A DNA stretch of 64,000 nt from an uncultured Chloroflexia bacterium (GTDB lineage Bacteria > Chloroflexota > Limnocylindria > Limnocylindrales > CSP1-4). The position numbers and the translations under genes were made by a program. The notes below the pieces were generated by a model that was not told the origin of the DNA, did no database searches, and saw only the letters and a program-made list of their open reading frames with translations. Below, piece after piece: positions 5,689 through 8,885 of this stretch (its first letter is position 1; each line of letters starts with the position of its first letter). The stretch lies in the NCBI GenBank assembly GCA_963752475.1, contig CAVVYR010000019.1, positions 128,001 through 192,000 of the forward strand, written 5' to 3'.

Positions 5689-6153
5689 ATGACCGAATCG
5701 AAGCCGCCGAGGGTGCCGCCGCGATGGTTCGTCCGCATGGCCTGGGCGTTCCACCGTGGCTACTATCGAGTCACCGGCGGACGCCGCGGCCTCTGGAAGC
5801 CCAAGCCGGGCAAGTGGGGCACGATGCGTCTGACCACCATCGGCCGCAAGTCCGGCGCCGAACGGGTGGCCATCCTGGGCTACTTCGAGGACGGCCAGAA
5901 CCTCGTGACCATGGCCATGAACGGCTGGGGTGAAGGCGCCCCGGCATGGTGGCTCAACCTGCAGGCGAACCCCGACGTCACCGCCGAGACCAAGGACGGC
6001 GTCTTCGCGGTCCACGGTCGAGCCGCTGAAGGAGAGGAGCACGACCGGCTCTGGGCCACGTTCGGCGAGTTCGGCGACGATGACCTCGATGCCTACGCCG
6101 ACGCGCGTGCGACCGAGACGCCGGTGGTCGTGTTGGAGCCGCGAGCGGGCTAG
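5689..6153 (+). CDS. Deazaflavin(F420)-dependent nitroreductase family (Ddn-like)
   Basis: LTTIGRKSG, PAWWLNLQANP and TPVVVLEPR motifs. Confidence 0.88.
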   Translation: MTESKPPRVPPRWFVRMAWAFHRGYYRVTGGRRGLWKPKPGKWGTMRLTTIGRKSGAERVAILGYFEDGQNLVTMAMNGWGEGAPAWWLNLQANPDVTAETKDGVFAVHGRAAEGEEHDRLWATFGEFGDDDLDAYADARATETPVVVLEPRAG

Positions 6154-7751
6154 GCGGGATCGCGAACGACGACCGACTCGCAGCGGGTGGCCGCGTCCGT
6201 GCTGTCGATGACGGCGTGATCGTCACCGCTGCCGCAATCGACGACGTCTGGTGTGCCGTCGGCCCAGGTGCGAACGATGTCGTCGCCGGCGCCGGCCTTG
6301 ATGGTGTCCTTGCCCGCGCCACCCTGGATCGTGTCCGCACCGGCACCCCCGTGGATGATGTCCGCACCGGCTCCACCACCGATGATGTCGCGGCCAGGGC
6401 CGCCCCTGAGCTCATCGGCGCCGTTGCCGCCGCGAAGCCTGTCGGCGCCTGCGCCACCGTCGATGACGTCACGGCCGGGACCACCGCCGATGGTGTCGCC
6501 ACCGGCGAGTCCTGCGAACGTCTCGTCCGCTCCGGTGCCGGTGACAGAGTCCGCGCTCGCTGTCCCGGTGTAGCGGCCGTCGGAGCTGATGCGGCCGCTG
6601 ACGAACCGTGTCACGGGAGCCGTGATGACCGGGTCGTCGTCCGGGGTCGTGGTCGGGAGAGGGGGAGCAGCGTCGTCGACCGTGAGGGTCTCGCTCGGCT
6701 GGTCCGCCGCGGTGGCCGCCGTGACCTCCGGGTCGACCGGGGTCTCGGGGGAGGATGACGGGCTCGCCGGATCGGCGGCGCTGACGCCGACGGTCATGAG
6801 CAGCATGGCCACGCCGACCGAACCGGCGACCACGGCGCGCGGTGCTCGATGGTCGCGCGCGGGCGAGATGATGCGCGTGAAACGGTGCTCGAGTGAACGC
6901 GCCGCGTCGATGCCGGTGGCCAGGGCTGGTGTGGTCCCTCGTGGGCTGGCCATGACCTCGACGACGGTCAGCAGGGTGCGCGCGTAGGCGCGAGGCTGGC
7001 CCTGAAGGTAGTCGAGGACCAGAGCGTCGCAAGCATCCTCTTCGTCTCGCCGCAGGTTGCGACGGGCCCACCACACGACGGGGTTCCACCAGAACGCGAC
7101 CGAAGCCAGCCACTCGAGCCAGCGCACGATGTGGTCACGACGCTTGATATGAGCCAGTTCATGAGCGAGGATCCAGCGCAGCTGAGCGTCATCAACCTCG
7201 TTGCGCAGCGCCTTCGGCAGGACCACTCGGACGCGTCCGCCACTCCACCAGGTCATGGGTGCGAGGCGCGCGGCCGAGACGTGGATCCCGGGTACCGTCT
7301 TCATATCGAGTTCGTAGGCCACGCTCTCTGCCAGTTGCTGGATGCCTGGTGGCGCCGGCCGGCAGGAGCTCCGCAGCAATCGCCCGAAACGGACGATGCG
7401 CCGGGTCGACGCCGCGAGCATCAAGACGCTGCCGGTGAGCCAGACCCCGATGAGTAGCAGTGGCAGGTTCGCCGTCAGCCAGCTCCCGGCCGCGGCACCC
7501 GCGTCGAGGACGGGGGCGACACCCGGGCTGACAGCCGCCGGTGTCACGACCGCCTCCGCCACGGCGACCTGCGGGACCGGCATGGCCAGCGTCAGCAACG
7601 GCGGCATGATCGCCGCGACCAGCGTCAGCACCCACAGGAGGTGCGCCAGCGCCGGGTAGCGGCCCTTCCGGTGGAGGCCGTAGGCCAGCAGGCCGACCGC
7701 TGCGGACAGCAGCAGGTTGTTGAGCCCGAGCCCCACCAGCGCGTCGGTCAA
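6150..7751 (-). CDS. BlaR1/MecR1-type M56 metallopeptidase with C-terminal RTX-repeat sensor domain
   Basis: N-terminal TM helices, HELAH zincin motif, WWNPVVWWA and EDACD M56 motifs, a further TM, a P/T linker, then GGxGxD repeats. Confidence 0.9.
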   Translation of the reverse strand: MTDALVGLGLNNLLLSAAVGLLAYGLHRKGRYPALAHLLWVLTLVAAIMPPLLTLAMPVPQVAVAEAVVTPAAVSPGVAPVLDAGAAAGSWLTANLPLLLIGVWLTGSVLMLAASTRRIVRFGRLLRSSCRPAPPGIQQLAESVAYELDMKTVPGIHVSAARLAPMTWWSGGRVRVVLPKALRNEVDDAQLRWILAHELAHIKRRDHIVRWLEWLASVAFWWNPVVWWARRNLRRDEEDACDALVLDYLQGQPRAYARTLLTVVEVMASPRGTTPALATGIDAARSLEHRFTRIISPARDHRAPRAVVAGSVGVAMLLMTVGVSAADPASPSSSPETPVDPEVTAATAADQPSETLTVDDAAPPLPTTTPDDDPVITAPVTRFVSGRISSDGRYTGTASADSVTGTGADETFAGLAGGDTIGGGPGRDVIDGGAGADRLRGGNGADELRGGPGRDIIGGGAGADIIHGGAGADTIQGGAGKDTIKAGAGDDIVRTWADGTPDVVDCGSGDDHAVIDSTDAATRCESVVVRDPA

Positions 7752-8128
7752 GCGTTTCTCTCCGGTTCCTCGTCGAGGATGGCACGCAGCCGGTCGATCT
7801 CCGAGCGCGAGATGCGCTTCTCTTCCACGAGCCGCGTGACGATGGGTGCGAGCGAGCCGCCGGTCAACCGTCCGGCCAGCATCTCCAGCTGGCTGGTGGC
7901 GTACTCATCGCGACTGACGGTGGCCAGGAAGAGGTGGACCGGCAGATCGTCGTTGCGCGCGACGTAGCCCTTCTCCTGCAGGCGCTGCAGCAGTCGTTGC
8001 ACGGTCCCGTGCTGGTTCTTCTGATCGGCGTAGAGCTTCTCGCGGATCTGGCGCGCGGTGACGCGCCCGCCATCCCAGAGCAGCTCCATCACCGCCAGCT
8101 CGGCGTTAGCCAACGGCGGTCGTGTCAT
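7748..8128 (-). CDS. BlaI/MecI/CopY family transcriptional repressor
   Basis: ELAVMELLW...TVQRLLQRLQEKGYVAR winged helix, EIDRLRAIL C-terminus, overlapping stop/start with the M56 gene, SD AAGGA. Confidence 0.9.
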   Translation of the reverse strand: MTRPPLANAELAVMELLWDGGRVTARQIREKLYADQKNQHGTVQRLLQRLQEKGYVARNDDLPVHLFLATVSRDEYATSQLEMLAGRLTGGSLAPIVTRLVEEKRISRSEIDRLRAILDEEPERNA

Positions 8129-8169
8129 CACTGCGTCCTTGTTCTTCGGCACGGCGACAAGGGTACCAA

Positions 8170-8232
8170 TACGACGACGAGTCGTAAAGATACGACAATC
8201 TGTCGTACATATACGACAACTTGTCGTATAGT
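8170..8232. promoter_or_regulatory. Three tandem palindromic operators in the divergent blaI/RTX promoter
   Basis: TACGAC-N5-GTCGTA at 8170, 8191 and 8212 (21-bp period). Plus-strand TATAGT at 8227-8232. Confidence 0.85.
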
Positions 8233-8318
8233 GAGGCTCCACCAAGCAAGGAGGGGCTCGTCCGGTCAAGTGAGAAAGCCGTGCCGGGCGTGCCCCAGGA
8301 GAGCAAAGGAAGGTCGAG

Positions 8319-8885
8319 ATGCCCCAGATCCGACACCTCGCAGCCACGACCGCGATCGTGGTCACACTCCTCCTCGTGTTCACGTCGGTCGCGGTGGCCC
8401 ACCCAGGCAAGCACCGCCCACCGCGCGGATTCGACAACCTGTGGATCGGCACGGCCGCAGCTGACCCCTACACCGCGCCCGACCGCAGCCGCGACAAGAT
8501 CCTCGGCCGGGCCGGGAACGATGTCCTTACCGCGGGCGACAAGAGTGACCTCGTCAGGGGCAACCGTGGCAACGACGCCGTCGAGGGCGGTGAAGGCCGT
8601 GACCGCATCCACGGTGGCTTCGGCGCCGACCGACTCTCGGGTGGCGAGCACGCCGACCGCATCTTCGGCGGCCCCGGCGCTGACGGCATCAACGGCGGCC
8701 CCGGACCGGACCGTATCAGGGCTGGCTTCGGCAACGACACCATCGTGGCCGACGACGGCACGCGCGACTTCATCAGGTGCGGCCCCGGCAGGGACACCGT
8801 CACCGCCGATGCCCGCGACCGCATCGCGAGGGACTGCGAGAACGTGACCCGTGTCCGCACTGACGACGGGTACGACACCGAATAG
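8319..8885 (+). CDS. Small secreted RTX-type Ca2+-binding protein
   Basis: Signal peptide (AVAH), GGxGxD repeats, C-terminal CGPGRD...DCENV cap, SD GGAAGG. Confidence 0.88.
   Translation: MPQIRHLAATTAIVVTLLLVFTSVAVAHPGKHRPPRGFDNLWIGTAAADPYTAPDRSRDKILGRAGNDVLTAGDKSDLVRGNRGNDAVEGGEGRDRIHGGFGADRLSGGEHADRIFGGPGADGINGGPGPDRIRAGFGNDTIVADDGTRDFIRCGPGRDTVTADARDRIARDCENVTRVRTDDGYDTE

Follow-up and report, generated by a model that had tools for sequence, protein, structure and literature searches.

What does a BlaR-type receptor sense when its outer part is built of RTX repeats, and what does it control? The question is raised by a locus in the 64,000-nucleotide stretch analysed here (the window; positions 128,001 to 192,000 of contig CAVVYR010000019.1, from an uncultured Chloroflexia bacterium). 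At this locus, a blaI-type repressor gene and a gene for an M56 membrane protease with an RTX C-terminus lie divergent from a gene for a small secreted RTX protein, here called sRTX. The genome that holds the window (G000) comprises 4.25 Mb in 38 contigs and is 88.8% complete, and the GC content of the window is high (0.63-0.70). We propose that the locus encodes a lineage-specific, non-canonical BlaI/BlaR switch that controls secreted Ca2+-binding and matrix proteins, for which Ca2+-dependent folding of the sensor would serve as the gate. We give this reading about an even chance of being right. The features on which it is built are as follows (pLDDT, predicted local distance difference test; TM4, fourth transmembrane helix).

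7748..8128, minus strand: blaI-type winged-helix repressor, 126 aa (PF03965, Penicillinase_R, 6.4e-25, 88.2 bits against a cut-off of 22.6)
6150..7751, minus strand: M56 (BlaR-type) membrane metalloprotease with RTX C-terminus, 533 aa (Peptidase_M56 PF05569, 1.9e-32, 113 bits against a cut-off of 31; HemolysinCabind PF00353, 8e-20)
7149..7163, minus strand: HELAH zinc-binding motif, residues 197-201 (alignment of 34 sequences)
6597..6764, minus strand: disordered Pro/Thr/Ala-rich linker after TM4, residues 330-385 (about 55 residues, pLDDT <50)
6153..6584, minus strand: predicted extracellular RTX beta-roll with about 10 GxGxD units and the closing cap W.DG.PD.VDCG.G.D.A..D..D....CE.V (AlphaFold2 model and alignment)
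8170..8228, strandless: three perfect 17-bp candidate operators TACGAC-N5-GTCGTA at a spacing of 21 bp (8170, 8191 and 8212), between blaI and sRTX
8319..8885, plus strand: sRTX, small Sec-secreted RTX protein, 188 aa (PF00353, 3.9e-22)

The repressor-protease operon

The blaI gene was found by tblastn as a single copy in G000. The PF03965 match of its product spans residues 7-120 of 126, taking in the winged-helix N-domain and the C-terminal dimerisation helices, and residues 6-120 align over the full length with the structures of MecI, BlaI and Rv1846c (2g9w) at E values of 1e-8 to 8e-7. The stop codon of blaI and the start codon of the M56 gene, the sole M56 gene in the genome, share a 4-nt overlap (TTGA), and the predicted BlaI-type repressor is translationally coupled to the M56 protease. 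The Pfam matches, the overlap and the signal peptide of sRTX agree with the original prediction, made from the letters of the window, that blaI and an M56 gene with an intact HELAH motif form an operon divergent from a small secreted RTX gene. Two near-identical, error-free contigs from an RNA library cover the operon, one within blaI (7801-7951) and one bridging the blaI/M56 junction (7557-7782). They are a weak hint of expression that gives neither levels nor ends and that DNA carry-over could also produce. Run X12 contained no near-identical contig on sRTX, and absence among contigs proves nothing.

In an alignment of 34 M56 relatives, which are 43-77% identical overall, the residues His197, Glu198 and His201 and the residues Glu237 and Glu238 of a DEED.CD block are invariant. 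An AlphaFold2 model of the M56-RTX protein built on these 34 relatives has a mean pLDDT of 80.2, with about 90 for the membrane and protease part. Foldseek matched the N-terminal part of the model to Staphylococcus aureus BlaR1 (8EXR_A) with a target-normalised TM score of 0.75 over 274 columns. Alignment and model together indicate that the M56 protein is a four-helix zinc protease with the BlaR1 fold. By sequence and by analogy, blaI and the M56 gene form a BlaI/BlaR-type repressor-protease operon, in which BlaI would repress and would be cleaved by its partner. In Pfam searches the M56 protein gave no PF00905 (transpeptidase), penicillin-binding or beta-lactamase-type match. Because the penicillin-binding sensor domain was not matched and the C-terminus belongs to PF00353, we describe the protein as non-canonical BlaR-like and not as a strict BlaR1. 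An RTX module at the place of the penicillin-binding sensor had indeed been claimed from the letters.

The RTX module of the protease

The homology with BlaR1 predicts that the RTX module faces the outside of the cell. In the model, residues 390-533 show a short strand once in about 9 residues, with pLDDT values of 79-95. With the whole model as the query, Foldseek matched the RTX tail weakly to RTX block V of CyaA (9p0d; root-mean-square deviation 3.0 over 108 columns, 32% identity, E 0.21). The linker that joins the module to TM4 varies in both length and sequence across the alignment.

RTX repeats are driven by Ca2+ to fold into beta-rolls, a process that is nucleated by the cap and usually takes place at sub-millimolar to millimolar Ca2+. 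In the 34 sensors the Asp and Gly residues of the repeats and both Cys residues of the cap (Cys506 and Cys524) are invariant or nearly so, and a sensor has between about 4 and 11 repeats. The conserved ligand positions suggest that the sensor binds Ca2+ and folds in a Ca2+-dependent manner, and conserved Asp and Gly together with a variable repeat number would be easier to reconcile with a switch that works by folding than with a surface for a specific ligand. In addition, a related M56 protein (P0115, 42% identity) bears true EF-hands in place of the RTX module (PF00036 1.4e-25, PF13499 3.3e-14).

The secreted protein sRTX

The sRTX gene starts 190 nt from blaI in divergent orientation. Its product has a signal peptide ending ...SVAVA-HP, about eight repeats and a Cys-Cys cap. 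The orthologues of sRTX form a distinct group of 21 clusters (57-100% identical, 182-207 aa), beyond which the identity falls to 45% or less. The N-terminal signal peptide is kept in the 21 orthologues, and the Gly and Asp residues of the repeats are invariant. The neighbours of the gene are blaI and a CpaF-type ATPase gene, with no ABC (ATP-binding cassette) or MFP (membrane fusion protein) exporter gene, and Pfam gave no toxin or enzyme domain in the protein. Because of the N-terminal signal peptide and the lack of an adjoining exporter, sRTX is not regarded as a type I secreted RTX exoprotein. The claim that RTX secretion is derepressed by proteolysis has to be reworded on this point, as what would be derepressed is the transcription of a Sec-exported protein.

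Candidate operators and regulon

The palindrome TACGAC-N5-GTCGTA occurs seven times as a perfect match in the whole 4.25-Mb genome, against none for a reversed control pattern. Each of the seven sits at a distance of 0-100 nt upstream of the candidate start of a protein that is exported or small. Reportedly, the operator consensus for BlaI of mycobacteria is close to the palindrome. By inspection, the outer half-sites at 8170-8228 continue into -10-like hexamers, TATAGT toward sRTX and TATTGG toward blaI, and across the operators such hexamers recur at the distal half-sites (GTCG-TATAGT, -TACAAT and -TATTCG). The palindromes would thereby overlap the predicted -10 regions of both the blaI-M56 operon and sRTX. 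We regard the TACGAC-N5-GTCGTA sites as candidate BlaI-type operators, and the layout as one of putative autoregulation.

Four of the seven perfect sites lie outside the blaI/sRTX region, one of them in the window and three outside it.

4346..4362, strandless: fourth perfect candidate operator, continued by TACAAT on the minus strand
4071..4289, minus strand: 72-aa CCHC mini-protein, CxxCxGTHxWxxxC (zinc-knuckle-like), with a GAAGGAG ribosome site; the operator at 4346 is 57 nt upstream
4444..5541, minus strand: third RTX protein gene (PF00353, 8.4e-34)
C1:82308 (locus L002, C1:79300-85300): candidate operator of a GH26-like exported protein (PF02156, 4.9e-10)
C4:6926 (locus L003, C4:3900-9900): candidate operator of a GH26-like exported protein (PF02156, 1.6e-11)
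C6:169107 (locus L004, C6:166100-172100): candidate operator of an 831-aa exported FG-GAP protein (PF13517, 2.3e-29)

A third RTX protein and a fourth operator within a few kilobases had also been claimed. Both are present, but they do not belong together. The operator at 4346 sits downstream of the third RTX gene and not upstream of it, its likely target is the 72-aa reading frame, and a search that allowed up to two mismatches gave no operator for the third RTX gene. The third RTX gene is a member of a separate paralogue family in G000, with about ten other loci that encode proteins of about 360-400 aa, lack operators and are distinct from the sensor/sRTX type. Members of this family have an N-terminal RTX block that closes GVGVDLC.QG.G....CE(L/I)P, followed by a second domain, several copies of which end G.GDD.FI.V. 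The 72-aa protein has seven homologue clusters (61-92% identical, 71-72 aa) and no Pfam family. A paralogue of it is encoded at C14:21642 of G000; both copies adjoin an RTX3-like gene, their orientations differ, and the operator is present at the window copy only.

The targets of the remaining three sites are predicted exported proteins. FG-GAP repeats hold Ca2+ loops, and the sequence of the FG-GAP target shows loops of the DxDxDG type. One of the two GH26-like genes is divergent from a gene for a PF02397 priming sugar transferase of the exopolysaccharide type, an arrangement also found in the genomes G005 and G009 of the same genus. The second follows a secreted CIA30-domain gene, and the FG-GAP gene follows a sulfotransferase gene. 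In all five other genomes examined (5/5) a perfect operator marks the blaI/sRTX region, and one is also found before the FG-GAP orthologue of G005 and before the GH26-like gene beside PF02397 in G005 and G009. Therefore, the core regulon is suggested to consist of sRTX and the switch's own operon, surrounded by a variable shell of exported matrix-related proteins.

No beta-lactamase, metal transporter or resistance gene is found among the operator-linked genes. Class A beta-lactamase families have no match anywhere in the genome, and none of the ten genomic matches to PF00144 lies on the window's contig, in line with the original prediction that the window holds no beta-lactamase.

This composition bears on a variant of the proposed switch in which the ligand is another cation (Sr2+, lanthanides or toxic metals) and sRTX is an extracellular sequestrant that provides detoxifying feedback, comparable to the sensor/beta-lactamase pair. 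A small, highly inducible secreted protein made purely of repeats is what a buffer would be expected to look like, and the 9p0d structure among the fold matches is an RTX block V with Sr2+ bound. However, the operators are not linked to any metal transporter or resistance gene, and the remaining regulon consists of a hydrolase family and the FG-GAP protein. We consider this variant very improbable.

Sites with one mismatch are close to background, with 17 in the genome against 8 for the control pattern at up to one mismatch. Two of them have an extended ACA..TGT core, C7:444490, which lies before a possible exported protein, and C6:176308, and no firm call is made on either. Three identical one-mismatch look-alikes (TACGCCGACTGGTCGTA) at 30549-30655 were rejected as operators, being a by-product of a repetitive coding stretch (30480..30720).

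Distribution and conservation

Relatives of the M56-RTX protein were collected as the best 120 clusters from a collection of 5.8 billion proteins. The M56+RTX architecture (PF05569 with PF00353) is present in 69 of these best 120 clusters, nearly all of them metagenomic and annotated only as M56 metallopeptidase or BlaR1-like. Within the genus, an M56 orthologue is found in 8 of the 36 other genomes of a first draw (G005, G006, G009, G011, G014, G024, G033 and G035), and a ninth (G704) came from a second draw. The architecture is thus not unique to this contig, with nine further genomes of the genus carrying the orthologue.

The order of sRTX, two or three operators (at least one of them perfect) and blaI-M56 is kept in all eight other loci with an upstream flank (seven from the first draw and that of G704); the G033 locus ends inside the M56 gene. 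The linkage to an RTX target, which had been named as decisive for the idea, is conserved in these 8/8 flanked loci. The M56 proteins of the conserved loci are 41-67% identical to the query, and therefore these loci span most of the known diversity of the family. Seven members of a survey of 40 other genomes of the genus have an sRTX orthologue, and all of them (7/7) carry the module; the G011 copy of sRTX is split into two reading frames.

Beyond the genus, the M56 part alone matched 1 of 300 other genomes in a class-wide sample, G009 of the same genus, a result that holds for the genomes searched and is not proof of absence. A phylum-wide sample gave no match in 400 other genomes at E <=1e-25 with three candidates scored per genome. 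Among the matches listed, a contig scan with alignment gave a single locus with RTX, L005 (identical to the DNA of G011), and the nearest M56 domains outside the group, again among the matches listed, come from metagenome-assembled genomes of Planctomycetota and Gemmatimonadota at 34-46% identity. From these sequence comparisons, the M56-RTX switch is judged to be lineage-specific and carried by a group of uncultured Chloroflexota.

At the C-terminus of the M56 orthologues of G024 and G035, a charged low-complexity tail stands where the RTX module would be, yet sRTX and the operators are kept at both loci. Such RTX-less orthologues in the same neighbourhood would be expected if the RTX part were not a sensor at all, and its role were to fix the protease in the wall or matrix, to set its spacing there, or to multimerise it. 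The real signal would then lie elsewhere, for example in damage to the envelope or matrix or in a cue from the cytoplasm, as with BlaR-like proteins whose outer part lacks a structured domain. The variable repeat number agrees with this explanation, as do the matrix-related genes of the regulon, such as the GH26-like gene beside PF02397, and Kurtz et al. 2026 (PMC13492132) describe the commonest M56 architecture as one whose C-terminus shows no identifiable domain. However, the cap and the Ca2+-ligand positions are strictly conserved in the 34 sensors, which have diverged to 43-77% overall identity, and EF-hands have been fused independently to a related M56 protein. We hold a purely structural RTX part to be doubtful.

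Does the sensor mirror its target?

The original prediction went further and proposed that the sensor mirrors its own secreted target, as in canonical systems. The C-terminus of the sensor and sRTX align over 148 residues including the cap with 41% identity (E 4e-21), and a profile-profile comparison of the two gave a probability of 99.6% (E 1.3e-24). The shared layout of the two proteins therefore stands in its length and its cap, while the "GT..AD" start that had been counted as part of it is common to RTX blocks in general. A six-frame scan of G000 gave the cap CG.G..D...CE within an RTX frame only in the sensor and in sRTX.

Three comparisons argue against a specific relation of sensor and target. 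The cap is shared by 51 of 90 generic RTX matches from other organisms. Within G000, sRTX scores 71.6 bits against the sensor, and other RTX loci score 70.9 and 70.1 bits. The sensor is only the tenth among the non-self matches of sRTX in G000. A quick tree built from 64 columns of the cap region in 148 rows also speaks against the mirror idea. It separates 69 sensors together with 22 unlinked RTX sequences (four from the genus) from 25 sRTX proteins together with 32 others, with an SH-aLRT (Shimodaira-Hasegawa-like approximate likelihood ratio test) value of 96. Sensor and sRTX are not paired by genome in this tree and are not each other's closest relatives. We conclude that the mirror idea is partly supported. 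The likeness lies at the level of a widespread capped-RTX module, of which the genome holds just these two. Its weak points are the wide occurrence of the cap, the lack of pairing in the tree, the RTX-less orthologues and a regulon that extends beyond RTX proteins.

The same data decide how much weight can be given to homotypic sensing, in which the RTX module of the sensor would bind sRTX or another capped RTX protein, and the product would feed back as a decoy, a co-sensor or a density signal. That the only two capped modules of the genome are homologous over their whole length, and that the sensor locus and sRTX always co-occur side by side, would be natural under this explanation. The retention of sRTX beside an RTX-less protease in G024 and G035 would not, and neither would the split of sensors from sRTX in the 64-column tree, each mixed with unlinked RTX sequences, nor a sensor score barely above those of other loci. 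Homotypic sensing is thus considered unlikely.

A different use of the likeness can be imagined, in which the fold of the secreted products is present on their own receptor as a "sentinel" copy, reporting whether Ca2+-dependent modules fold or abound outside the cell and setting production to match. We think it improbable that the system works in this way. If it did, it would point to a design rule for the large orphan BlaIR family (BlaI/BlaR-type pairs), namely a sensor domain that copies a co-regulated exported protein.

Proposed mechanism

Based on the features above, we propose a switch gated by the Ca2+-dependent folding of the sensor. In the resting state, BlaI would repress the operator-bearing promoters. 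The RTX module would be disordered without Ca2+ and compact with Ca2+, and this change would be the input. Its folding state would be passed on through TM4 to the cytoplasmic protease. Upon activation, the protease would cut BlaI, which would derepress a few exported proteins, the majority of them Ca2+-binding or related to the matrix. Production would in this way be gated by the metal on which the products depend outside the cell, be it at high or at low Ca2+. The logic would be that of PetR-PetP in Synechocystis sp. PCC 6803, where copper-dependent cleavage of a BlaI/CopY-type repressor by a BlaR-type membrane protease is described to turn on a copper protein (Garcia-Canas et al., bioRxiv 10.1101/2020.07.31.226407).

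Four arguments lead us to favour Ca2+-dependent folding as the input. The ligand positions are conserved while the repeat number varies; the related M56 protein P0115 bears true EF-hands; at least two products of the regulon (sRTX and the FG-GAP protein) have Ca2+-binding folds; and PetRP is a precedent for a metal-gated pair of the BlaI/BlaR type.

Five observations weigh against the proposal. The staphylococcal BlaI/MecI scissile bond, which we take to be Asn-Phe, aligns with Arg-Leu in this BlaI. In the model, the long disordered linker gives no obvious path by which a conformational signal might reach the membrane part. The sequencing runs that contain this DNA are labelled sediment, seawater and salt marsh, and in such settings Ca2+ may be saturating, which would make the module a poor sensor. 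A strict sigma-70 consensus scan of positions 3900-9000 found no promoter. Finally, G024 and G035 keep sRTX and operators without RTX in the protease, so that the RTX module is not essential to the switch.

If the Ca2+ gating is true, it would be a second metal input for the family after copper in PetRP, and a compact gene switch responding to Ca2+ from a phylum that has been little studied. The putative Ca2+-dependent outer fold gives one of the many orphan BlaIR switches a concrete signal that can be tested. The fixed divergent target promoter with its three clean operators offers a ready reporter, and the RTX-less natural variants offer built-in controls.

Comparison with known systems

The locus resembles BlaI-BlaR1 and MecI-MecR1 of S. 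aureus and Bacillus licheniformis in its operon of a winged-helix repressor and a four-helix M56 protease, in its divergent palindromic operators and in its putative autoregulation. It differs in the outer domain, which is a predicted RTX beta-roll on a long disordered linker here and a penicillin-binding domain there, and in the candidate targets, which are secreted RTX, GH26-like and FG-GAP proteins here and a beta-lactamase or penicillin-binding protein there. Rv1846c-Rv1845c of Mycobacterium tuberculosis is likewise a pair with a sensor-less or atypical BlaR, and the structure of its BlaI (2g9w) aligns over the full length. The mycobacterial regulon includes blaC and energy-metabolism genes, and no RTX domain or divergent secreted paralogue is known there.

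Non-canonical pairs have recently been recognised as a kind of their own. Kurtz et al. 2026 (PMC13492132) report about 15,000 M56 proteins in 254 architectures, less than 10% of them with a transpeptidase domain, and describe their signals as unknown. RTX is not among the architectures with at least 100 entries that the legend of their Fig. 7 names. CenIR of Clostridioides difficile, as described in the same paper, is a BlaIR system that lacks a domain for binding beta-lactams and, like the present one, has a small regulon with an adjacent exported protein and an envelope or wall hydrolase; its signal is given as unknown. The outer part of CenR is described there as short and disordered, whereas the protein studied here has a recognisable Ca2+-binding fold that suggests a ligand. 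PetRP shares the BlaI-type repressor, the BlaR-type protease and metal gating, although the metal dependence would be an inference for the present locus; the metal in the published account is copper, and no RTX module figures in it. An atypical BlaIR system of Pseudomonas has also been described (bioRxiv 10.64898/2026.08.03.742534).

Outside the BlaIR family, the beta-roll of tandem GGxGxDxUx nonapeptides with a C-terminal capping structure recalls block V of Bordetella CyaA and the type I secreted lipases and proteases. Here it is joined to a membrane anchor or a Sec signal, the cap has two Cys residues, and no toxin or enzyme domain is present. A full-text literature search for BlaR1/M56 together with RTX found no publication describing an M56-RTX switch. 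We conclude that the switch belongs to the known, recently recognised non-canonical BlaIR kind and is not a new category, and that the RTX variant itself is new.

Related proteases and neighbouring genes

A metagenome scan for relatives of P0115 returned 80 loci, among which its own contig was not included, and none of their 78 M56 frames had at least two EF-hand loops or at least three GxGxD units. Eight metagenome loci (L104, L107, L108, L110, L117, L118, L133 and L139) encode P0115-related M56 proteases with long outer arrays of a helical repeat of about 29 residues, AVxxGK[IL][ST]xE[ED]A... The EF-hands of P0115 at the equivalent place raise the question whether this helical repeat is a degenerate EF-hand.

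Downstream of sRTX, two further genes were annotated.

8955..11162, plus strand: CpaF/T2SSE-type secretion ATPase (PF00437, 1.2e-62) with a C-terminal RidA/L-PSP fusion (PF01042, 2.4e-15)
11676..14093, plus strand: 805-aa HerA/DUF87-type ATPase with a long charged coiled C-terminal region

The true start of the first reading frame is probably near residue 61-71 of the listed frame. The CpaF-RidA fusion is not present at the L005/G011 locus, and it lies directly 3' of sRTX in G704 too, with 80% identity.

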